From the NCBI GenBank assembly GCA_030019415.1, contig JASEEX010000006.1:693-64692 (forward strand): 64,000 nt of DNA, in the 5' to 3' direction. This document shows positions 4,344 to 49,695 of this stretch, piece after piece. The translations under genes were made by a program, and so were the position numbers. The notes under the pieces are model-generated. The model saw nothing but the letters and a program-made list of their open reading frames with translations. It had not been told where the DNA came from and did no database searches. Position 1 is the first letter of the stretch, and each line of letters opens with the position of its first letter. Source of the stretch: Thermodesulfovibrionales bacterium. Its GTDB lineage: Bacteria; Nitrospirota; Thermodesulfovibrionia; Thermodesulfovibrionales; SM23-35.

Positions 4344-4427
4344 AAATTAGCAATTATCAATGCAAAATTATCAATAAGTTTTAACTTGATAATTGTTAAT
4401 TGATAATTTTAACTTGCAATTAAACCT
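4344..4427. repeat. AT-rich imperfect palindrome in the hypB-hypF spacer
   Basis: Arms are built from TTATCAAT / ATTGATAA-type units around the centre AAGTT-TT-AACTT (about 4376-4387). Confidence 0.6.
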
Positions 4428-6836
4428 TTGAGCATGGGATCTCGCAAAACTGATTTATGGTTAATGAAACCCAGGGTGAAGATATTAGTCAGGGGAATTG
4501 TCCAGGGAGTTGGCTTCAGGCCCTTTGTTTATAGCCTCGCCAGAACTTTGAATCTCAAGGGCTTCGTGATGAACTCATCCAGGGGTGTTACTATCGAGAT
4601 AGAAGGTAACGATAGCTCCACCTTTATCGAGAGGCTTACCAGAGAGGCCCCACCTCTTTCACAGATAATGGAAGTTGATATAATTCCCATGCCCTATCAT
4701 GGTTATCAGGATTTTCAGATAGTCAGGAGTGAGGACGAAGGGAGTTTCACCCTCATTTCTCCAGATGTCTCGTTATGCGAAGACTGCTTGAGGGAGCTGC
4801 TGGATAAGAATGACAGACGTTACCTCTACCCATTTATAAACTGCACGAACTGCGGTCCAAGATATACAATAACAAGATCCATTCCTTATGATAGACCAAA
4901 CACCACCATGTCTGTTTTTCAGATGTGCCCTGAATGCGAGAAAGAATACCATAATCCAGAAGACAGGAGGTTCCATGCCCAGCCGAATGCATGCCCCATC
5001 TGTGGACCTCAGGTCCAGTTAAAAGTTAAAAGTGAAAAGTTAAAAGTTGATGAAAAAGAGAATCCACTAAGGGAAACAATAAGACTTCTAAAGCAAGGAT
5101 ATATTGTTGCCATAAAAGGGCTGGGGGGGTTCCATATAGCTTGCGATGCAACTAACGATGAGGCAGTAAAGACGTTGAGATTAAGGAAGAGAAGGAGTAA
5201 CAAACCCTTTGCCCTGATGGCTCCTGATGTTATAACAATAAAAAAGTTCTGTGAGGTATCTGAGGAAGAAGAGATGCTCTTAATTTCTAACAAAAGACCG
5301 ATTGTGCTACTTAAAAAGAGGCAAAACTCTCTTCCTGATGCAGTTGCACCGAATAACCCCTGCCTCGGCTTCATGCTTCCCTATACACCGCTGCATTACT
5401 TGCTTTTTTACTATCCGACCCCCCCTGTGCCCTCCCTTGCTAAGGGGGGGATTGGAGGGGTGAATTTCGATGCCCTTATCATGACGAGTGGCAACCTCTC
5501 GGAAGAGCCTATCGTCATAGACAATAATGAGGCTCTCTCTACGCTTTCAGGCATTGCTGATGCCTTTCTTATTCATAATAGAGATATTTTTATGCGGGTT
5601 GATGATTCAGTAGTAAGAGTCATCAGTCATCAGTCATCAGTCATCAGTCAAAAACTTTCAACTTTCAACTTCCAACTTTCAACTTTCTTCATTCGTCGTT
5701 CACGTGGATATGTCCCTGACCCCATTCCCCTTCATGAGGATGGCCCCGAGGTTCTCGGTTGTGGAGCTGATATTAAAAATACCTTCGCCCTTACAAAGGG
5801 AGGTTTTGCGATACCGAGTCAGCATATAGGTGATATGGAAAACTACGAGACATTAAACTTTTTTGAAGAGAGTTTAGAAAACCTGAAAGCTGTTTACAGG
5901 GTAAGTCCTGTGGCTCTTGCGTATGACCTTCACCCAGGGTATCTATCAACACAATGGGCATTGCGGCAGGAAGATATTGAAAAGGTAGGTATCCAGCACC
6001 ACTATGCCCATATTGCTTCTGTGATGGCTGAAAAGGGGATAAAGAGGAGGGTTATAGGTTTCTCCTTTGATGGAACCGGTTATGGCACTGATGGAAATCT
6101 CTGGGGTGGAGAAATTTTAATTGCCAATATAGAGGGGTTCGAAAGGGTGGGTCATTTTAGATATATTCCCCTTCCAGGGGGTGAAGTGGCAATTAAGGAA
6201 CCGTGGAGGACGGCCGTAAGTTATATCTGGAGTATGGCTCACGATAAGGCAATAGAGTATCTTGAGTCCATAGGCTTTCTTGAAAGATATGGTCATGAGA
6301 TGATAGGAAACATTTTGAGGGTTGTCGATAAAAAACAATTTTCACCCCTTTCATCAGGAGCAGGGAGGCTCTTCGATGCGGTCTCAACCATACTCGGGAT
6401 ATGTGACAAAAATACCTTTGAAGGAGAGGCAGCTATTGCACTTGAAGCCATAACGAGACCTGATGTAGTCGATGACTATCCTGTAGATATAAAATTCAGA
6501 GAGGCCATAGAGATTGATTTTTCCCAGACTCTTTTGAGGATTATAGAGGATTTAATAAAAGGAGAGGGTAAAGGTTTTATTGCATCTCTTTTCCATAACA
6601 CCGTAGCCACTGCTATTTTTAGAATTGCGCAGAAGCTCTCTTCCCTTTACATGATAAAAGAAGTTGTTCTAAGCGGAGGGGTATTTCAGAACATTTATCT
6701 CCTCGAAAGGACCATCGCAAGGCTTAAATCCATAGGAATGGAAGTCTATGTCAACGAAAAGGTTGCATGTAATGATGCCGGGATATCCCTCGGCCAGGCA
6801 TATATAATCAGGGAAAGGATAAAGGCAAGAAAATAA
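4428..6836 (+). CDS. hypF: carbamoyltransferase HypF
   Basis: Acylphosphatase domain (GIVQGVGFRPF), two CxxC zinc-finger pairs, YrdC-like (KGLGGFH) and Kae1-like domains. 802 aa. The start could instead be the ATG at 4434 or 4461. Confidence 0.95.
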   Translation: MSMGSRKTDLWLMKPRVKILVRGIVQGVGFRPFVYSLARTLNLKGFVMNSSRGVTIEIEGNDSSTFIERLTREAPPLSQIMEVDIIPMPYHGYQDFQIVRSEDEGSFTLISPDVSLCEDCLRELLDKNDRRYLYPFINCTNCGPRYTITRSIPYDRPNTTMSVFQMCPECEKEYHNPEDRRFHAQPNACPICGPQVQLKVKSEKLKVDEKENPLRETIRLLKQGYIVAIKGLGGFHIACDATNDEAVKTLRLRKRRSNKPFALMAPDVITIKKFCEVSEEEEMLLISNKRPIVLLKKRQNSLPDAVAPNNPCLGFMLPYTPLHYLLFYYPTPPVPSLAKGGIGGVNFDALIMTSGNLSEEPIVIDNNEALSTLSGIADAFLIHNRDIFMRVDDSVVRVISHQSSVISQKLSTFNFQLSTFFIRRSRGYVPDPIPLHEDGPEVLGCGADIKNTFALTKGGFAIPSQHIGDMENYETLNFFEESLENLKAVYRVSPVALAYDLHPGYLSTQWALRQEDIEKVGIQHHYAHIASVMAEKGIKRRVIGFSFDGTGYGTDGNLWGGEILIANIEGFERVGHFRYIPLPGGEVAIKEPWRTAVSYIWSMAHDKAIEYLESIGFLERYGHEMIGNILRVVDKKQFSPLSSGAGRLFDAVSTILGICDKNTFEGEAAIALEAITRPDVVDDYPVDIKFREAIEIDFSQTLLRIIEDLIKGEGKGFIASLFHNTVATAIFRIAQKLSSLYMIKEVVLSGGVFQNIYLLERTIARLKSIGMEVYVNEKVACNDAGISLGQAYIIRERIKARK
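5018..5052 (+). repeat. (GTTAAAA)-type heptamer tandem array inside hypF
   Basis: gttaaaa gttaaaa gtgaaaa gttaaaa gttgatg, translated as LKVKSEKLKVD. Confidence 0.7.
5419..5460 (+). repeat. G/C-run hairpin element in frame inside hypF
   Basis: CCCCCCCTGTG, then CCCTCCCTT-GCT-AAGGGGGGG (9-bp stem with one T.G pair), then ATTGGAGGGG. Encodes PPVPSLAKGGIGGV. Confidence 0.6.
5619..5688 (+). repeat. two abutting heptamer arrays inside hypF: (GTCATCA)x4.5 then (CTTTCAA)x5
   Basis: Read directly from the sequence. Translated as VISHQSSVISQKLSTFNFQLSTFF, between the conserved DDSVVR and RRSRGYVP blocks. Confidence 0.8.
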
Positions 6837-6872
6837 AGTTTAAAGTTAAAAGTTAAAAGTTAAAAGTTAAAC
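6837..6872 (+). repeat. (GTTAAAA)x4-5 heptamer array in the hypF-hypD spacer
   Basis: aagtttaaagttaaaagttaaaagttaaaagttaaa directly after the hypF stop. Same unit as at 5018. Confidence 0.8.
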
Positions 6873-6885
6873 GGATAAGGTACTT

Positions 6886-7956
6886 TTGATGAAGAACATA
6901 ATAAAAAAGATAAGTGATTTAATGGATTCCATCGGCAGACCTGTAAGGCTCATGGAGGTATGCGGGACGCATACTGTAGCAATATTCAGACATGGCATAA
7001 GGGAGATTCTCCCTGAAGGCATTATCTTCCTGAGTGGCCCAGGCTGCCCTGTGTGTGTTACCCCGATAAAAGATGTGGATACTGCTATTGCTATTTCGAA
7101 GATGAATGACTTTATCCTCGCTACCTTCGGAGATATGATGAGGGTGCCTGGAAGTAAGCAATCTCTTTATCATGCACAGGCAGAGGGTGCTGATATAAGG
7201 GTTGTCTATTCCTCAATGGATGCATTAAAACTTGCATCAGAAAATAAAGAGAGGAATATTGTATTCTTTGCAACAGGTTTTGAGACAACATCGCCATCTG
7301 TTGCTGGAACCCTCTTTGAGGCAGAAAGGATAGGGGTTGATAATTTTTATATATACTCCGCGCATAAGACAATTCCTCCAGCCATTAAGGCCCTCCTTGA
7401 TTCTGATGATGTTAGGGTAGAAGGTTTTATTCTCCCCGGACATGTGAGCACAATTATAGGGAGCAGACCCTATGAATTTATAGCATCTGATTATAGAGTG
7501 TCCTCGGTCATAACAGGTTTTGATGCAGAGGACATACTTCAGGCTATTATGATGCTCCTTGAACAGATTGCATCTGGCAAGCCAGCTGTGGAGATTCAAT
7601 ATAAGCGTGCAGTGAGAGAGGAGGGCAATCCGAAGGCCGTATCTCTCATGAATGAATACTTTGAGCCACGCAATGCGAACTGGAGGGGAATAGGGATGAT
7701 TCCCCGGAGCGGATTGAGATTGAGGGATAAGTTCGGACGCTGGGATGCCGAAAAGTTATTCCATATTGATATTCCAGATTCTAAGGAACCAAAATCCTGC
7801 ATCTGTGGCTCTGTCATAAGGGGAGCCAAGATACCGACAGATTGCCCCCTCTTTGGAAGGGCCTGCACTCCCGAAAGGCCTGTAGGTGCATGTATGGTTA
7901 GCACTGAAGGAAGCTGTGCAGCATATTATAAGTATTCAGGGGTATATCGTGGATAG
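6886..7956 (+). CDS. hypD: hydrogenase maturation protein HypD
   Basis: MEVCGTHT, GPGCPVCVTP and FETT motifs, and a C-terminal Cys cluster. 356 aa. Confidence 0.95.
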   Translation: MMKNIIKKISDLMDSIGRPVRLMEVCGTHTVAIFRHGIREILPEGIIFLSGPGCPVCVTPIKDVDTAIAISKMNDFILATFGDMMRVPGSKQSLYHAQAEGADIRVVYSSMDALKLASENKERNIVFFATGFETTSPSVAGTLFEAERIGVDNFYIYSAHKTIPPAIKALLDSDDVRVEGFILPGHVSTIIGSRPYEFIASDYRVSSVITGFDAEDILQAIMMLLEQIASGKPAVEIQYKRAVREEGNPKAVSLMNEYFEPRNANWRGIGMIPRSGLRLRDKFGRWDAEKLFHIDIPDSKEPKSCICGSVIRGAKIPTDCPLFGRACTPERPVGACMVSTEGSCAAYYKYSGVYRG

Positions 7957-8947
7957 AATTCTCCTTGGTCATGGTAGTGGTGGAAGAATGATGCACCAGT
8001 TAATCAGGGAACATTTTGCCCCTGAATTTGAGCTTAAATCACTTAATGATTCTGCTGTCCTTGAGGGGATAAATCATGGAAGGATTGCGTTAACGACAGA
8101 TTCTTACGTCGTCTCTCCTATATTCTTTCCTGGAGGAGATATCGGAGATCTTTCCGTTTATGGTACTGTGAACGACCTTTCGATGGTTGGGGCAAGACCC
8201 CTTTGCCTTACGGCAGGTTTTATTCTTGAAGAGGGCTTCCCCCTCGAAGATTTAAAGAGGATTCTATCTTCTATGTCAGAGGCCGCAGAAAAGGCAGGGG
8301 TAAAGATAGTTGCCGGAGACACAAAGGTAGTTAATAAAGGCAAGGGAGATGGAATATTCATCAATACATCCGGGATCGGAATAATCGAAGAGGGGCTTGA
8401 TATATCGCCTTCAAGGGTAATGCCTGCTGATAAGGTTATTCTAAGTGGCCTTATTGGAAATCATGGAATTTCAATTATTGGAGAAAGAAATGGCCTCACT
8501 TTCGACCCACCCATATTGAGTGATACAGCACCCCTGAATAGTCTCGTCAGGGATATGCTGAATACAACTAAGGAGATACATGCCATGAGAGACCCTACGA
8601 GGGGAGGTCTTGCAACATCCCTCAAAGAGATCGCAGGGGATTCAGGATACTGTATTGTGATTAAAGAAGAGTCTATACCTGTTCCGTCAGGAGTAAGGGG
8701 GGCATGTGAACTCCTCGGCCTTGACCCACTTTATGTAGCCAATGAAGGGATACTTGTTGCAATAGTAAAACCTGATGTAGCAGAATCGCTTGTTAGTATC
8801 ATGAGAAAACATCCGCTGGGTAAAGAAACCCGGTTAATCGGATATGTGCAGAAGGCACCAGCAGGAATGGTCTTACTGAAGACATCTATAGGTGGCACCA
8901 GAATAGTTGAGATGCTCTCAGGAGACCAGTTGCCGAGAATATGCTGA
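7949..8947 (+). CDS. hypE: hydrogenase maturation protein HypE
   Basis: Starts VDRILLGHGSGG and ends with the canonical PRIC. The GTG at 7949 overlaps the hypD stop. The track ORF (from 7886) extends into hypD. Confidence 0.9.
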   Translation: MDRILLGHGSGGRMMHQLIREHFAPEFELKSLNDSAVLEGINHGRIALTTDSYVVSPIFFPGGDIGDLSVYGTVNDLSMVGARPLCLTAGFILEEGFPLEDLKRILSSMSEAAEKAGVKIVAGDTKVVNKGKGDGIFINTSGIGIIEEGLDISPSRVMPADKVILSGLIGNHGISIIGERNGLTFDPPILSDTAPLNSLVRDMLNTTKEIHAMRDPTRGGLATSLKEIAGDSGYCIVIKEESIPVPSGVRGACELLGLDPLYVANEGILVAIVKPDVAESLVSIMRKHPLGKETRLIGYVQKAPAGMVLLKTSIGGTRIVEMLSGDQLPRIC

Positions 8948-8949
8948 TG

Positions 8950-9136
8950 GTTGAATAACCAATAACCAAATCCCAATGACCAAATAATAACCAATGTCCA
9001 AATTACAAATAACCAAAAATTTAGAATTTAATTATGGTCTGATATTACTGCTTCAAAATTTGAAATTTGTTTGGAAGTGTTTGGTTATTGATTATTGGAA
9101 TTTATTTGGTGATTGGTTATTGGAATTTGGTGATTT
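8950..9136. repeat. long imperfect palindrome built from heptamer-phased units (hypE-pdxJ spacer)
   Basis: The left arm is G-poor (AATAACC AATAACC AAATCCC AATGACC...). The right arm is C-free (TTGGTTA TTGATTA TTGGAAT TTGGTGA...). The arms are partly complementary. Confidence 0.75.
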
Positions 9137-9156
9137 AACTCTCTTGGAGGTTTCAT

Positions 9157-9876
9157 ATGTTACTGGGTGTAAATGTTGACCATGTGGCTACTATAAGACA
9201 GGCAAGAGGAGGCATCGAGCCTGACCCTGTTATGGCCGCAACCTTAGCCATACTTGGTGGCACAGATGGAATCACAGTTCATCTCAGGGAAGACAGGCGT
9301 CATATACAGGACAGGGATTTGAAGATGTTAAAGGAGTTTGTACCTGTTGAATTAAACCTCGAGATGGCAGCAACAAAGGAGATGATAGGCATCGCAACTA
9401 AGTTAAAGCCTGATCTGGTTACACTCGTACCTGAAAAAAGGGAGGAGCTTACAACAGAAGGCGGGTTAGATGTGACCTCACATAAAAGAAATATCCGGGA
9501 TGCGATAAAAAAGATTCACGATGTCGGTATCCCAGTGAGTCTCTTCGTAAATCCCGATTTTGAGGCTATTACTCTCTCAAAGCAGATAGGAACAGACATG
9601 GTAGAGATACATACTGGAATTTATGCAAATGCAAAAGGGAAAGAACAGGAAAAGGAATTGACTCGTATCATTAATGCAGTCGGACACGCACTGGATACCG
9701 GTCTTGCGGTCAATGCAGGGCATGGCCTTAATTATTTTAATGTTACAAAAATAGCCTCTATACAGGGCATAAGGGGGCTTTACATAGGACACAGTATTGT
9801 TTCAAAGGCAGTGCTTGTAGGAATGGAGAGGGCTGTTAGGGAAATGAAGGAGTTAATAAAAGAGGCTACCCGCTAA
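9157..9876 (+). CDS. pdxJ: pyridoxine 5'-phosphate synthase
   Basis: LGVNVDHVATIRQARGG, HLREDRRHI and NAGHGL motifs. 239 aa. Confidence 0.9.
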   Translation: MLLGVNVDHVATIRQARGGIEPDPVMAATLAILGGTDGITVHLREDRRHIQDRDLKMLKEFVPVELNLEMAATKEMIGIATKLKPDLVTLVPEKREELTTEGGLDVTSHKRNIRDAIKKIHDVGIPVSLFVNPDFEAITLSKQIGTDMVEIHTGIYANAKGKEQEKELTRIINAVGHALDTGLAVNAGHGLNYFNVTKIASIQGIRGLYIGHSIVSKAVLVGMERAVREMKELIKEATR

Positions 9877-10994
9877 AATCTCAAGAATGCACCAATTCCT
9901 CCGGCATCCAGTAATTTCTTATTTTCTGCTACTACTTCAACCAGAGCACCCTGCCCTATTGCCTTTTCACCTGCAAGATCAACTATATAATCAACTATCT
10001 CCATCTCACCTTTACAGTAAGGACAGGGTTCGACTTTTTGGATAGTCAAAAATCCGCAAGATGAACAGGAGTATCCAGATGTCCTGAAATCCTTTATTAA
10101 GACTAATTTCATCACCTTCTGTTCCTGCAGGGCATTAAGAACATTTTCTAATCCCAATACAGCATCTTTATTCTTCATAGCCCCTGTAATCAGTGCTTCT
10201 ACTGTTTCCTTCTCTTTCTTTTTCTCAAAGTCAAGAACTATCGGTTCTACCCTAGCCAGAACCTCAGGACTTTTAGCAAACATCTCTATCTTTACCGTTC
10301 CTATAACCTTATCGAGAATTGTCTTGTGTAGCATATCTTTGACCATGGAAACGGCTTCATCAGAGCCACCTATTATCAGCCTCCCGATATATTCTCCACC
10401 GAGGAATGAATCCAGTTTTTCTATTACCTCTTTAAGGTGCATGCCTACATGATAATCTATATGCCGCGCATAGTGATTTTGAGAAAGGGCAAACCATCCA
10501 CCCTTTTTATGTTTTCCGGGAATGTCAGGGGTGTGGACCTCACCGTATTCTACAATCTCACGAAGGTGAACCACAAATATCCTTGCGGACTCTTTATCCA
10601 CGAGCAAAACTGCATACCTTTGGTAATTATCCAGAATATCCATAAGAGGTTTTGTATAGGGAGTCTTATCAACAATCAATTCATTCTTTACAGGGATACC
10701 GAGATGGTATTCCTTCCAGAAGGAATTCACAGTGGAACTCAAAAGGGCGAGTCCCTTTTTAAACATCCTTTTATTTGTAAGGACGTAATTATCAATCCTT
10801 TCCAGGTCATCCTTTACTCTTTTATATATAGTCTTATCCAGCGACTCTACAGTGTTCTTCATCATATTTTTGAGATGCACCGTATAGTCTCCTTTTTTAT
10901 TGAACATGGGATCAACATTGAGATAGAGACTAACAAAATAACCACCCTTTCTCTCCATAGATGTGATCTCTTTCAGTTCTGCCCTGCTAAGCAT
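9873..10994 (-). CDS. bacterial archaeo-eukaryotic release-factor-like protein (baeRF/VLRF1-type, eRF1/Pelota fold) with zinc ribbon
   Basis: N-terminus ...GGYFVSLYLNVDP, central loop KKGGWFALSQNHYARH (in the GGQ-loop position), CSSCG...CPYCKG ribbon, and the eRF1/Pelota domain-3-like end GGIGAFLRF. Confidence 0.6.
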   Translation of the reverse strand: MLSRAELKEITSMERKGGYFVSLYLNVDPMFNKKGDYTVHLKNMMKNTVESLDKTIYKRVKDDLERIDNYVLTNKRMFKKGLALLSSTVNSFWKEYHLGIPVKNELIVDKTPYTKPLMDILDNYQRYAVLLVDKESARIFVVHLREIVEYGEVHTPDIPGKHKKGGWFALSQNHYARHIDYHVGMHLKEVIEKLDSFLGGEYIGRLIIGGSDEAVSMVKDMLHKTILDKVIGTVKIEMFAKSPEVLARVEPIVLDFEKKKEKETVEALITGAMKNKDAVLGLENVLNALQEQKVMKLVLIKDFRTSGYSCSSCGFLTIQKVEPCPYCKGEMEIVDYIVDLAGEKAIGQGALVEVVAENKKLLDAGGIGAFLRF

Positions 10995-19732: not shown

Positions 19733-19993
19733 CAAATAACCAATCATCAATAACCAATCACCGAACAAGCTCCAACTGCCAATAATTAAACATTAAAATT
19801 CAAAATCCTAATATCTAAATCCTAAACAAATTCAAAATCCTAAATTCAAATATTTAAAATGTTTTGAATTTTGTATTTTGAGCATTTGTGCTTGTTTAGA
19901 ATTTAGGATTTGGGATTTCGGATTTAAACCCTTTAGGATTCCGAATTTGGTATTTCTTTTCAGCATGTTTGGTTATTGTAATTTGGTTATTGG
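19733..19993. repeat. 261-bp imperfect palindrome of heptamer-phased units (tupA-tupB spacer)
   Basis: Left arm CAAATAA CCAATCA TCAATAA ... AAATCCT AAATTCA. Centre AAATTCAAA-tatttaaaatgt-TTTGAATTT. Right arm ...AGGATTT GGGATTT ... TTGGTTA TTGGTTA. Confidence 0.75.
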
Positions 19994-20818
19994 TTATTTT
20001 GCTGCATTGGGAATAAATAGCCGATTGCCATGTTTATCTTTAAATGATGCTATGGCCTGCTGTCCTTCCTTTGATATGATCCAATTGATAAATTCCATGG
20101 ACTCTTTATATTTAACATGTTTATGTTTTTCAGGATTGACCGCCATGACCCCGTATTGATTGAATAATATCGGGTCGCCTTCAAGAACTATAATCATTTC
20201 GAGCTTGTCTCTCTCTCTTGTTGTAAACCATGTGCCCCTGTCTGTTAGAGTATATGCACGTTTTTCGTTTGCAATCCTCTGGGTCTTTTCCATTCCCTGA
20301 CCTGATTCGAGATACCATTTATTCCCTTTTGGGTCAACACCTGTTTTTTTCCAAATTTCGAGTTCTTTATTATGGGTCCCTGAATTATCTCCACGCGAAA
20401 CAAAGGGATATCCAGTCACTGCGATTTTGCGGAATGCATCAGAAGCAAGTTTCATCCCTTTTATTTTTGCAGGATCATCTGAAGGACCTATAAGTATAAA
20501 ATCGTTATACATGACGTCATGGCGATTGACAAAGTATCCTTCCTCAACCGCCTTTAATTCCAGTTCCTTTGCATGAACGAAGACCATATCTGCATCGCCC
20601 CTTTTCCCTATCTCGATGGCTGCACCCGTGCCAACAGCAACCACATCAACCTTAATGCCCATCTTCTTCTCAAATATGGGCAGAATGTAATCAAATAATC
20701 CAGAATTCTGGATACTTGTAGTTGATGCACAGCGGATCCTTGTTTCTGGAGATACCGTGCAGGCGAAAAAACTAAATATAACTGTTACTAATACTAAAAG
20801 ACCCTTTGATAACTTCAT
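19994..20818 (-). CDS. tupA: tungstate/molybdate-type ABC substrate-binding protein (TupA-like)
   Basis: Signal peptide with lipobox-like FFAC. ASTTSIQNSGL anion-binding motif and GTGAAIEIGKRGDADM, typical of TupA-like PBPs. Confidence 0.6.
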   Translation of the reverse strand: MKLSKGLLVLVTVIFSFFACTVSPETRIRCASTTSIQNSGLFDYILPIFEKKMGIKVDVVAVGTGAAIEIGKRGDADMVFVHAKELELKAVEEGYFVNRHDVMYNDFILIGPSDDPAKIKGMKLASDAFRKIAVTGYPFVSRGDNSGTHNKELEIWKKTGVDPKGNKWYLESGQGMEKTQRIANEKRAYTLTDRGTWFTTRERDKLEMIIVLEGDPILFNQYGVMAVNPEKHKHVKYKESMEFINWIISKEGQQAIASFKDKHGNRLFIPNAAK

Positions 20819-46644: not shown

Positions 46645-47358
46645 TCAAGAGACTGCTCTTTTACCTGAACGAAGCCGGGAGAGCGCCTCTCTGGCAGCAA
46701 GGGTCTGTGCCTCTTTCTTGCTTTTTCCTGCACCCCTGCCGAACTTCTTCCCTCCTATAAAGACTTCAATTGTGAAAATCTTTTTATGCTCTTCCCCCTC
46801 CTGTTTTATAACTCTATATTCAGGAAGGGCACCGAATAAGAGTTGAGTCTTTTCCTGAAGCTCTGTCTTAAAGTCGTGGAATTCGTTAGAATGCAGGATA
46901 ACATCTATTTTTTCTCTGAACAATCTCAGTAAAAGTTCTCTAACCTTTTTGTAACCACCGTCTATGTAAATTGCCCCAAAAAGAGCCTCAATCGCATCCG
47001 CCAAAAGCGACTTTTTAGCCCTACCCCCGGTAGCTTCCTCACCTTTTCCGAGTCTGAGGTATTTTCCGAGAGATATAGAGTCAGCAATCTCAGAAAGGAT
47101 AGATTCCTTTACAAGATAGGATTTAATCTTAGCCATAACTGACTCTGTAAATTTCCTGTCTGATAAAAAGAGATGTTCGACTATTACAAATCCGAGTATA
47201 GAATCGCCGAGGAATTCAAGCCTTTCATTATAGGCAACTGCCTTATCCGGATTCTCATGATAGAAAGACTTGTGCGTCAGGGCCTCTATGAGAAGCTCCT
47301 TATTCTTGAATACATAACCGAGACGCCTTTCTAATTCAGCAGTATTTTTCAATTTCAA
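46645..47358 (-). CDS. rnc: ribonuclease III
   Basis: ERLEFLGDS catalytic signature and a C-terminal dsRBD (GKSKKEAQTLAAREAL). Confidence 0.92.
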   Translation of the reverse strand: MKLKNTAELERRLGYVFKNKELLIEALTHKSFYHENPDKAVAYNERLEFLGDSILGFVIVEHLFLSDRKFTESVMAKIKSYLVKESILSEIADSISLGKYLRLGKGEEATGGRAKKSLLADAIEALFGAIYIDGGYKKVRELLLRLFREKIDVILHSNEFHDFKTELQEKTQLLFGALPEYRVIKQEGEEHKKIFTIEVFIGGKKFGRGAGKSKKEAQTLAAREALSRLRSGKRAVS

Positions 47359-47399
47359 TTAGGTTACAATGAGTTATCAAATTTCTTATTTCTAATTTC
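47359..47399. repeat. heptamer-phased AT-rich spacer (AATTTCT-type units)
   Basis: caaatttct tatttct aatttct tacttaa atttctt, between fabF and rnc. Confidence 0.5.
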
Positions 47400-48641
47400 T
47401 TACTTAAATTTCTTAAACAAGAGGCAGGCATTGGTCCCACCGAATCCAAAAGAGTTGGATAAGGCATAATTGACCGTCATCTTTCTTGCTTTGTGGGGGA
47501 CATAATCAAGGTCACACTCAGGGTCCGGGTTATCCAGGTTTATTGTTGGTGGGACTATGTCATTGTAAATACTTAGTATGCTGATAACCGCCTCAACACC
47601 CCCTGCGGCACCAAGTAAATGTCCTGTCATAGATTTTGTTGAACTGACTGCTACCTTATAGGCATGTTCTCCAAACACTGTCTTTATGGCATTGCTTTCG
47701 AGCTCATCTCCGTATTTTGTTGAAGTGCCATGGGCATTTATGTAATCCACCTCTGAGGGTTCAACTCCTCCATCCTTTAATGCCATCGCGATACACCTTG
47801 CAGCACCCTCACCACTTGGAGAAGGAGCGGTAATATGATATGCATCTGCGGTCATACCATAACCAACTATCTCCGCATATATTTTTGCGCCTCTATCCAT
47901 GGCGTTTTCAAGGCTCTCAAGTATTACAATACCGGCACCCTCCCCCATTACAAAACCGTCTCTATCAATATCAAAAGGCCTGCTTGCCTTTTCTGGCTCA
48001 CCATTTCTTGTAGAAAGAGCCTTCATTGCATTAAATCCCCCTATCCCTAAAGGTGTTATTACTGCCTCCGTCCCTCCTGCAATCATAGCATCTGCCTCAC
48101 CTCTCTGGATAATCTTAAATGCATCTCCGACCGAGTGACTTCCTGTAGCGCATGCAGTAGATACCGCAGAGTTTGGCCCTTTTGCACCGAACCTTATGGA
48201 TATCTGACCTGAGGCAAGATTTATGGCTAACATCGGGATAAAAAAGGGCGTTATCCTTCTCGGGCCTTTCTCAAGTAAAACAGAGTGGTAATGTTCAATT
48301 GTGTGCAGACCTCCCATACCTGAACCGACAATCACACCTATCCTTTCTGCATTACTGTCCATTATCTTCAGACCGGAGTCATCCAGGGCCATTGCCGTAG
48401 CAGCAATAGCGAAGTGGATAAAGCGGTCCATCTTCTTAAGTTCTTTAGGCTCTATGTAATCTTCAGGGTTAAAATCTTCCACCTCACCAGCTATCTGCGT
48501 CTGAAAGGTGGAGGCATCGAAATAAGTTATCTTTCTGATACCAGATTTGCCATTGATAAGATTTTCCCATGTAGTCTTAACACCCACACCGACGGGTGTT
48601 ATAAGACCCAAACCGGTTATAACAACTCTTCCCCTATCCAT
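47400..48641 (-). CDS. fabF: beta-ketoacyl-ACP synthase II
   Basis: Active-site ACATGS, the HGTST and GHLLGAAG motifs. 413 aa. Confidence 0.95.
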
Positions 48642-48877: not shown

Positions 48878-48892
48878 AAAAGCACCTCCAAA

Positions 48893-48955
48893 CTTAAATT
48901 TCAAATATCAAATTTCAAATATCAAATTTTGGAATTTGGAATTTGGAATTTCTTT
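48893..48955. repeat. heptamer-built hairpin in the fabG-acpP spacer
   Basis: Left arm AAATTTC AAATATC AAATTTC AAATATC AAATTTT (G-free). Right arm GGAATTT GGAATTT GGAATTT (C-free). Confidence 0.75.
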
Positions 48956-49695
48956 CACATATACATGCCGCCATTCACGTGTATCACCTGACCTGTTATA
49001 TAGCTCGAATCAGGTGATGCAAGAAAAATAACGGCATTTGCGACATCCTCCACTGTGCCGAATCTCCCTAAAGGAATAAGCCTCTTCATCTCCTCCTTCA
49101 CACTCTCTGGCAGAACATCTGTCATTGCAGTCTTTATAAAACCAGGGGCAACGGCATTCACTGTTATCCCCCTGTTTGCATATTCCCTTGCTATTGTCTT
49201 TGTAAGTCCGACTATCCCTGCTTTTGAGGCACTGTAATTTGCCTGCCCTGGATTACCCATAAATGCAGCTACAGATGCAATATTAACTATCCTTCCATAT
49301 CGCCGCTGAGACATCTCCTTTATAGCCTCTCTGGAACAAAGGAAGACACCCTTAAGATTGATATCCACTACAGAGTCCCAGTCTTCCTCCTTCATTCTGA
49401 GTAACAGGCTGTCTTTTGTTATGCCGGCGTTGTTTATCAATATATCTATCCTGTTGAACTCCTTACGCATATCCTCGAATGCCTTTTTAACCTCCTCTGA
49501 CTTCGATACATCAAGTTTTATTCCCATGGCCTTGATTCCGAGAGCTGTAAAAGCCGCCGCAGCCTCGATGGCTGCATCAGGGTTTATGTCTGCAACAGCT
49601 AAATTGACGTCCTTTTTTGCAAGCCCCTCAGCAATTGCCTTGCCAATACCACGTCCTCCGCCTGTAACTATTGCAACCTGCCCTTTAAAATCCAT
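48955..49695 (-). CDS. fabG: 3-oxoacyl-ACP reductase
   Basis: TGGGRGIG, NNAG and YSASK motifs. 246 aa. Confidence 0.95.
   Translation of the reverse strand: MDFKGQVAIVTGGGRGIGKAIAEGLAKKDVNLAVADINPDAAIEAAAAFTALGIKAMGIKLDVSKSEEVKKAFEDMRKEFNRIDILINNAGITKDSLLLRMKEEDWDSVVDINLKGVFLCSREAIKEMSQRRYGRIVNIASVAAFMGNPGQANYSASKAGIVGLTKTIAREYANRGITVNAVAPGFIKTAMTDVLPESVKEEMKRLIPLGRFGTVEDVANAVIFLASPDSSYITGQVIHVNGGMYM

Follow-up and report, generated by a model that had tools for sequence, protein, structure and literature searches.

The spacer between hypE and pdxJ in the genome of an uncultured Thermodesulfovibrionales bacterium (Nitrospirota) carries a 183-nt, AT-rich element at positions 8954-9136 of the stretch of DNA analyzed here (64,000 nt, contig C133 from 693 to 64692, hereafter the window). 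This element is one copy of a repeat family, named AATAACC after its heptamer unit, and is not a structure specific to the locus. The AATAACC family is a discrete, dispersed foldback repeat with a patchy distribution in one family of the order Thermodesulfovibrionales. Overall, we consider it fairly probable that the element is an oriented, inserted copy of this repeat and a gene-less relative of cassettes that resemble the intervening sequences (IVS) of 23S rRNA and carry a PF05635 gene, with a transcript that RNase III could cleave. It has the look of a selfish insertion devoid of genes rather than of a conserved regulatory RNA.

Bacterial heptamer repeats have been on record since 1990, when Mazel et al. 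reportedly described the cyanobacterial STRR heptanucleotide repeats, and still lack a convincing origin or function. Here, one abundant heptamer "palindrome", at the least, turns out to be an oriented, discrete element. Its ends are defined and are common to cassettes with an IVS protein gene, and its hairpin is not kept by compensatory evolution. Three literatures are joined here, namely those on rRNA intervening sequences, on heptamer simple-sequence repeats, and on operon repeats resembling MITEs (miniature transposable elements with inverted repeats).

The hypE-pdxJ element and the AATAACC family

The element occupies most of the 209-nt spacer between the TGA stop of hypE (8945-8947) and pdxJ. 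Its 5' arm in the sense of the genes (8954-9016, plus strand, A-type) is made of degenerate AATNACC/AAATNNC heptamers and includes only two G (A34 C16 G2 T11), and its 3' arm (9070-9136, plus strand, the reverse complement of a B-type arm) is made of TTGGTTA, TTGGTGA and TTGGAAT units and includes no C (A13 C0 G19 T35). Between them lies a variable, AT-rich centre or loop (9017-9069, plus strand; 53 nt, no open reading frame [ORF]) in which fold prediction places a small internal hairpin, and which is covered at a depth of ~0.6 in the metagenome of a close strain, vs. ~180 for the flanks. Tandem Repeats Finder (TRF) identified period-7 arrays of AATAACC (8954-9016) and TTGGTGA (9106-9135), with a degenerate periodicity (60-69% matches). 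The first-pass annotation, made from the sequence alone, had described two arms in 7-nt phase, one poor in G and one free of C, and this description holds.

The same annotation had proposed that the transcript can fold into a long bulged hairpin, and had named arm complementarity at the level of shuffled sequences as the result that would speak against it. The arms form a 46-nt inverted repeat with 74% complementarity, and the minimum free energy (MFE) of the predicted RNA fold is −53.8 kcal/mol, vs. −39.7 ± 3.6 for dinucleotide shuffles (0/200 as good, z −3.9). When heptamer units were permuted within each arm, the MFE was −52.1 vs. −39.3 ± 4.4 for the permuted sequences (1/300), and the local alignment score of the arms was 25 vs. 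18.9 ± 2.9 (74/2000). The complementarity is thus above what composition and periodicity would give, but modestly so, and the excess arises because the two arms share a collinear family consensus.

This consensus was derived from the source genome (G000; 1.94 Mb in 166 contigs, 42% GC), from which 28 elements with AATAACC-type arms were printed, with recurring arms and varying centres; the genome holds at least 28-36 copies. A MAFFT alignment of the 56 arms and flanks of these 28 copies displays a collinear consensus with a sharp outer boundary and a non-heptamer punctuation, CCAAATAA. The two arms of an element are not identical, each spans ~45-55 nt with invariant CCAA cores 7 nt apart, and they fall into two types (A, AATAACCAATAACCAAATTCCAATAACCAAATAATAACCAAT; B, AATCACCAATAATCAATAACCAAACACCAAATAAATTCCAATAACCAAT) which in the majority layout are arranged as A followed by the reverse complement of B, with the caveat that the typing thresholds are arbitrary and several copies are half-typed. 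In the hypE-pdxJ copy, the left arm fits the A consensus (A-type score 38 vs. B-type 24) and has its sharp outer boundary in the family alignment at AATAACC, and the right arm is of type B (38 vs. 23) with GGTGATT as its outer end (9129-9135).

A scan of the source genome specific to this family retrieved 63 arms and 22 pairs, all with the same inside-out polarity and hence with an A/C-rich arm on the left (22 to 0), and the pairs found in metagenomes are likewise polarized (53 to 1). A 29-nt phrase of the A arm, searched with up to two mismatches, occurs 36 times in the source genome and never when read backwards, 28 times in a genome of the same genus (G001), and 3-44 times in six further genera belonging to the same family. 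It is present in 8 of 41 related genomes, the 33 other relatives being without it, and in 93 metagenome stretches; no copies were found in the viral contigs searched for it.

Copies are also oriented relative to their neighbours (gene calls throughout being crude, greedy ORF calls). Among fully typed copies of the source genome, the A arm is 5' in the sense of the co-directional genes in 14 cases vs. 1 (A-to-B vs. B-to-A 12 to 2 in a stricter set), and the same-genus genome gives 8 to 0, the two counts not being independent because 7 of 13 mapped elements of the latter are orthologous to copies of the former. Fully typed metagenome copies gave 9 to 2. Relative to the sign of the local GC skew, orientation is evenly split (9 to 9), and four copies follow genes on the locally minority strand; orientation thus follows the immediate genes and not the regional trend, as a bias that is real but not absolute.

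GC skew was rejected as a proxy for replication direction, since across the whole genome the skew of a contig tracks its fraction of plus-strand genes (r = 0.93) and therefore mirrors coding-strand composition. A difference in RNA stability between strands was rejected as well, sense and antisense folds being equal (−36.4 vs. −35.3 kcal/mol, p = 0.26). As the general reason for the orientation, a portable Shine-Dalgarno sequence at the B end (GGTGAT) was likewise rejected: it fits one site of the same-genus genome, and most copies, that at hypE-pdxJ among them, have the downstream Shine-Dalgarno outside the element. At that site (L108), an AATAACC element lies where the source genome has a 4-nt GGGG between a stop and the next ATG (C87:17786-17844), the terminal GGTGAT of the B arm is 5 nt before the ATG, and the element appears to replace the ribosome-binding site.

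In 18 related loci, a tblastn orthologue of hypE lies upstream of pdxJ, and the spacers examined among them differ widely. Three loci (L002, L018, L031) have spacers of 27, 24 and 37 nt which end ...tggagg...ATG as in the source genome; the same Shine-Dalgarno motif is kept in these short-spacer relatives (tggaggtttt..ATG), and in the window the pdxJ Shine-Dalgarno GGAGG (9146-9150, plus strand, 6 nt 5' of the ATG) is outside the element. Other loci have unrelated, GC-richer palindromes (L005, L006, L007, L011), another palindrome (L009, L010), or a heptamer-armed cassette with a gene (L017). Judging from these spacers, the element was inserted into a spacer that once measured ~25-35 nt, in the lineage leading to this genus.

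The orthologous element of the same-genus genome (L106) has flanks 93-100% identical to those of the source genome, arms ~85% identical with one clean deletion of a 7-nt unit, and an unrelated loop. More broadly, for 13 elements of that genome the orthologous spacer was found in the source genome, and it holds a shared element in seven cases, is empty in three (58, 32 and 71 nt), and contains other repeats in three. From these alignments, AATAACC copies are gained, lost or replaced between congeneric genomes, the direction being resolved for the hypE-pdxJ copy only. On metagenome contigs at this locus the arms are 10-20x deeper than the flanks and many apparent joints are other copies of the family; unitigs break at the element, and strain-level presence or absence is therefore unreadable from these contigs.

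The centres of AATAACC elements behave as landing sites for other elements. Small repeats are hosted in loops or arms at C111:44260-44526, C90:4653-4935, C22:22706-22908, C81:12663-12770, C66:31193-31321, C155:46955 and C33:26903 of the source genome, and include a ~150-nt insert common to two AATAACC copies in opposite orientations, a cattgcgagc...gctcgcaatg type, a TCCGCCTCAGGCGGA hairpin within an arm, and a CCTGTCCTGACGACAGG hairpin.

PF05635 cassettes with heptamer arms

The gene-bearing cassette in the L017 hypE-pdxJ spacer has an ORF of 122 aa, with a match to PF05635 (23S_rRNA_IVP, E = 1e-15), between arms of the AAATCCT type. The source genome encodes 12 PF05635 genes, at least eight of which stand between inverted heptamer arrays whose unit is particular to each, and PF05635 genes with heptamer arms are also found in distant, closed genomes from other families of the order. 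Where an upstream neighbour is defined, these genes are co-directional with it in six of seven cases. Among the 53 metagenome pairs of AATAACC arms, two enclose PF05635 genes (L145 and L190, E ~1e-18), and a third AATAACC-armed locus (L176) encloses one as judged by its sequence similarity with L190. Read in the sense of the gene, L145 and L176 have the A arm first, then the gene and then the B arm, which is the orientation that gene-less copies take relative to their host genes, and in L145 the ATG of the ORF lies within an AATGAC unit of the A arm.

The first-pass annotation had assigned the element to no family that it could name. It does stand outside STRR repeats, REP/BIME elements, classical MITEs and rRNA IVS, because for each of these a defining feature was looked for and is lacking; yet its kin can be named, since the same arms enclose PF05635 genes (and a cassette sits at the same spacer in L017), and the closest named kin are IVS elements, inverted pairs of heptamer simple-sequence repeats, and MITE-like repeats.

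In Coxiella burnetii, tandem GACAGAT heptamers precede the S23p ORF of the IVS and vary in number among strains; the IVS is bounded by a terminal stem of 28 bp, and RNase III cleaves at the first of the repeats (PMC4990558). Like the 23S rRNA IVS of Coxiella and Leptospira (PMC4990558), the AATAACC element appears to be a small selfish insert in sense orientation within a probable host transcript, with stem-forming inverted ends, and its relatives carry a PF05635 gene between the same arms; in Coxiella, tandem heptamers lie beside the S23p ORF. Unlike them, it lies between hypE and pdxJ, whereas they occupy helix 25 or 45 of 23S rRNA; an ORF is absent from this copy, the family is multi-copy (at least 28 per genome), and the arms are ~63-67 nt long, AT-rich and heavily mismatched, in place of a near-perfect 28-bp stem. 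Excision by RNase III is a feature of IVS and is here predicted by analogy, the RNase III gene rnc being encoded in the window (46645-47358, minus strand).

In the reading that we favour, PF05635 cassettes (S23p, a four-helix bundle) would act like 23S rRNA IVS elements moved into the spacers of protein operons and into CRISPR arrays, where they would be part of host transcripts and oriented in the sense direction, and the gene-less element would derive from such a cassette, either by deletion or as a non-autonomous copy. Descent of gene-less copies from transcription-dependent cassettes, or mobilisation in the same way as these, would account for the sense orientation. By analogy with IVS, read-through RNA from hypE to pdxJ would form a long, mismatched, AU-rich hairpin that could serve as an RNase III substrate as the IVS stem does; the element is probably co-transcribed and cut by RNase III, and cleavage would uncouple the hypE and pdxJ cistrons without terminating transcription. 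On this reading, RNase III should cleave the transcript, the PF05635 protein should bind the arms, and effects should depend on orientation. For annotators it is a warning not to label such spacers riboswitches, terminators or small RNAs, and the repeats account for spurious N-terminal extensions and assembly breaks at such sites.

Several observations weigh against this account. In one metagenome locus (L152; Ga0299915_10039387, 60-900), the arms enclose an ORF that we read by eye as a DUF559-type endonuclease gene (a Pfam search, run on a wrong-strand frame, returned no match), and the arms may thus be a general landing pad or carrier that is not specific to IVP genes. The family-specific scan found no long AATAACC pairs enclosing genes in the source genome. 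The orientation bias in metagenomes weakens to 16 to 7 once half-typed copies are included. No target-site duplication was found at the three filled/empty pairs, the junctions of which are slightly rearranged. No paralogues are identical (minimum of 4 differences over 68 arm positions, median 12), so that a recent burst or transposition in the source genome is unsupported and some presence/absence differences could be deletions. Finally, the stem is broken every few pairs, the longest uninterrupted helices of the MFE structure being ~9-10 bp, and a stem with such short helices may be a poor RNase III substrate.

Three further observations concern these cassettes. The L152 ORF is itself bracketed by GC-rich palindromes (CCCCCTCTTAAGGG...), in the manner of one small selfish cassette nested in another. 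Two PF05635 cassettes with heptamer arms of the source genome (C141:124-752 and C66:8001-8457) each fall exactly between a pair of CRISPR-type repeats (..TTCCC[AT]ATGAAGAGGGAACTGAAAG), i.e., in the place of a spacer, and the same repeat forms arrays on C48, C66:57-734 and C141; cassettes at such sites would be inside a transcript processed by Cas6, in parallel with IVS in rRNA. Lastly, a 705-nt contig (C10:1-705) and C111:25100-25800 (PF05635 locus at C111:25339) have the same flanking genes around a different PF05635 gene with different arms (AAAGGTT vs. GTGTCAG), as if, between strains, one cassette had been exchanged for another in a single spacer.

It is tempting to speculate further that heptamer-armed cassettes of PF05635 (S23p/Avd-like) genes are a widespread, unrecognised class of selfish elements living in processed host transcripts (rRNA with RNase III, operon spacers, CRISPR arrays with Cas6), whose gene-less remnants would make up much of the heptamer repeat DNA of bacteria, from STRR-like arrays to inverted pairs. 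The polarity of the arms would then come from the way they are made or copied: on both strands the A/C-rich sequence is 5' and the T/G-rich one runs 3' outward, as at the two ends of a linear replicon, and the arms could be made, e.g., where a hairpin or linear intermediate is reiteratively extended at its 3' ends. The hypE-pdxJ copy would then be an RNase III-dependent operon-splitting module that such an element left behind. We think this extension unlikely.

Arm pairing and possible selection on the arms

The first-pass annotation had suggested looking for co-variation between the arms as a sign of conserved structure, and this part of its proposal failed. For the left arms, the mean complementarity score is 22.7 within elements vs. 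24.9 between elements, and the own partner ranks anywhere from 3 to 26 of 28. Across 26 pairs of A and B arms aligned without gaps, RNAalifold returned −1.0 kcal/mol with no compensatory pairs, and when the full mirror helix was imposed 70.7% of cells pair, vs. 71.3 ± 0.5% with shuffled 3' partners (446/500 shuffles at least as high). The columns that do not vary are the CCAA/TTGG cores, set in a 7-nt register; in the positions that separate them, each arm varies on its own and mismatches prevail. The helix is thus not maintained copy by copy; pairing follows from the shared consensus, and a hairpin forms because both arms derive from one family of words. An RNA element conserved for its structure, as the annotation implied, is not what these copies look like.

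In one alternative, the arms would be phased arrays of binding sites (one CCAAT core per 7 nt) for a lineage-specific DNA- or RNA-binding protein, such as the PF05635 product, a recombinase, or a single-strand binder of Csp/S1 type, with function or mobility mediated by the protein and the palindrome a by-product of two arrays facing each other. The alignment is suggestive in this respect, as the cores are its sole invariant columns and the one to three positions between them vary freely and per arm, and between genera the phrase is much better conserved than neutral spacer DNA; binding of S1, Csp or CsrA was moreover proposed by MacGregor for TAACTGA heptamer arrays (PMC4679880). Against it, the analysis turned up no candidate protein, the arms do not flank Y1-transposase genes, and a 7-bp spacing does not place sites on one face of the duplex. 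We consider this alternative unlikely; it is compatible with the favoured reading.

Selection on the hairpin itself, as a cis-regulatory RNA that would serve the hyp-pdx transcript as attenuator, terminator, stabiliser or coupler of translation, appears quite unlikely. The strong predicted fold, the position within a probably co-transcribed gene pair, the orientation of the family with transcription, and the L108 copy that can supply a ribosome-binding site through GGTGAT all speak for such an RNA. Yet there is no covariation in the 26 copies, the variable heptamer positions are mostly mismatched, each arm ranks its own partner at random among all partners, the folds of the two strands are equally stable, orthologous spacers are 24-37 nt long or filled with unrelated inserts, and pdxJ has its own Shine-Dalgarno outside the element. 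Neither terminator-like sites (scanned on either strand) nor promoter-like sites were found in 8950-9136, which lacks the short GC-rich stem and U tract of an intrinsic terminator. At gathering score, Rfam matched three tRNAs alone within the window, and not the element.

Heptamer arrays in the genome and known repeat systems

We inventoried the source genome for heptamer periodicity combined with inverted repeats, as the first-pass annotation had suggested. With arrays defined by at least 15/21 self-matches at a given lag, 437 arrays were found at lag 7, vs. 23-95 at lags 5, 6, 8, 9 and 10, and 1 in a Markov shuffle. They comprise ~190 different units (TRF), AACCAAT (= AATAACC) being the commonest and AAAAGTT the next, and 222 of the 437 are inside ORFs. 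An inverted partner is found within 250 nt for 83 arrays, of which 54 are in co-directional, 10 in convergent and 3 in divergent spacers, and 12 are intragenic. Divergent (promoter) spacers are depleted relative to spacer length (chi-square p = 0.0004), and placement is unremarkable relative to spacer number (p = 0.15). The 5' arm is the A-rich one in 61 elements and the T-rich one in 4 (binomial p = 4e-14), a polarity that is the same on either strand. This, and not the G-free and C-free arms noted at hypE-pdxJ, is the general rule, since elements of the AAAAGTT type have a G-containing left arm and the G-free left/C-free right arrangement is therefore a special case.

As the sole explanation of the AATAACC family, STRR-type repeat DNA of local origin (an array grown by slippage and inverted by template switch, never mobile, and sharing with other loci a mutational process only) is largely refuted and as a reading very unlikely: heptamer arrays are indeed hugely over-represented, with ~190 units and about half of the arrays in ORFs, the clean 7-nt deletion between the two congeneric orthologues shows that slippage does act on the arms, and neither target duplication nor transposase was found, but 56 arms with one collinear ~45-55-nt consensus, its CCAAATAA punctuation, a sharp end and two arm types, a 29-nt phrase that returns with at most two mismatches in 93 metagenome stretches and in 8 genomes from several genera, and polarities of 22 to 0 and 53 to 1 are unexpected if each locus arose independently.

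Membership in STRR1-3 was also rejected on the units (AATNACC/AAATNNC) and on the host, which belongs to Thermodesulfovibrionales and not to the heterocystous cyanobacteria. The 7-nt periodicity of the element is degenerate, and in its arms the units follow a fixed, collinear order and do not form a free array. In Beggiatoaceae, TAACTGA repeats form direct tandem arrays, with one inverted set among 170 (PMC4679880). The element resembles STRR and TAACTGA repeats in the 7-nt unit, the many dispersed copies, the non-coding setting and a function obscure for decades, and differs in that these are direct tandem arrays of other units in other phyla, without a foldback element with defined ends.

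Also comparable are the GGGAATC arrays of Xanthomonas and the GGGGA(C/T)T arrays of Nostoc, which are mostly intergenic and mostly between co-oriented genes, and of which 70-75 cases per genome form convergent inverted pairs (Rehm et al., 2015, PMC4692102). These arrays are G-rich, fold into G-quadruplexes and consist of near-perfect tandem copies, whereas one arm of the element is nearly G-free, the other is without G-runs, and both follow a fixed, collinear order of units, come in two arm types and stop at a defined outer edge; a connection with PF05635 genes is not reported there (PMC4692102). Paired convergent arrays (Xanthomonas), direct arrays (cyanobacteria, Beggiatoaceae) and heptamers inside S23p IVS (Coxiella) were thus published before. 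We found no paper on heptamer repeats in Thermodesulfovibrio, Thermodesulfovibrionales or Nitrospirae.

With extragenic palindromes of the REP/BIME type the element shares its position between co-directional genes, and the first-pass annotation was right to liken it to REP/BIME in position and to STRR in unit length. REPs are ~20-40 nt, GC-rich and have a GTAG-type head, unlike this 183-nt, AT-rich element, which has no RAYT association: in a search for a RAYT/IS200 link, none of the nine Y1-transposase genes of the source genome was flanked by AATAACC arms. The Correia elements of Neisseria, ERIC/IRU and the pneumococcal BOX are non-coding, multi-copy, 100-200-nt repeats with inverted ends that lie in co-transcribed spacers and are present or absent between relatives; Correia hairpins are RNase III substrates, and BOX has distinct ends and a modular middle. 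As in MITEs, the element has terminal inverted repeats, a small size, many copies, and presence/absence polymorphism at orthologous sites. It departs from MITEs, Correia, ERIC and BOX in its 7-nt periodic arms, in the lack of a target-site duplication (three pairs), and in that no transposase-bearing parent was found, its gene-carrying relatives encoding PF05635 or, in one case, a putative DUF559-type protein, neither of which is a known transposase. The foldback (FB) transposons of Drosophila have long terminal inverted repeats composed of short tandem ones, a centre that varies and sometimes cargo genes, and provide an analogy only, being eukaryotic, kilobase-scale and without sequence or protein relationship to the element.

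Other arrays and genes of the window

A second copy of the AATAACC family (C133_20450) lies at 19733-19998, with outer arms at 19733-19768 and 19969-19998 that enclose a nested AAATCCT/AGGATTT heptamer palindrome (19793-19829 and 19892-19928). Its neighbours on both sides are minus-strand genes; the B arm is the left one and the A arm the right one, so that the element runs A-to-B when read with the genes. Two further inverted pairs are a palindrome of CAATTAT/ATAATTG units with an 11-nt loop (4344-4415), directly upstream of hypF, and abutting inverted arrays (48886-48957; AAATTTC/AAATATC, then three TTTGGAA) between two minus-strand genes; single, unpaired arrays are found at 6827-6882 and 47372-47408, the latter directly upstream of the rnc start. 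All of these are in co-directional spacers. The first-pass annotation had counted at least four such elements besides the one at hypE-pdxJ, a figure that is borne out for three inverted pairs and is reached only if single arrays are included.

Heptamer arrays also occur in frame inside hypF (5012-5053 and 5609-5702), as (AGTTAAA)x4.6 and then (AGTCATC)x4.7 abutting (AACTTTC)x5. The latter two lie between the conserved DDSVVR and RRSRGY blocks, i.e., in the linker from the Sua5/YrdC to the Kae1-like domain.

The genes that flank the element are hypE (7886-8947, plus strand; an ORF with Pfam AIRS and AIRS_C domains, encoding a hydrogenase maturation protein, whose true start may be downstream of 7886) and pdxJ (9157-9876, plus strand; pyridoxine 5'-phosphate synthase, Pfam PdxJ, E = 3.7e-97). 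The nearest relatives of PdxJ are all from metagenome-assembled genomes of Thermodesulfovibrionales/Nitrospirota. Convergent with pdxJ is a minus-strand gene (9873-10994) for a bacterial eRF1-like protein (baeRF_family10, E = 6e-30), which overlaps the pdxJ stop by 4 nt.

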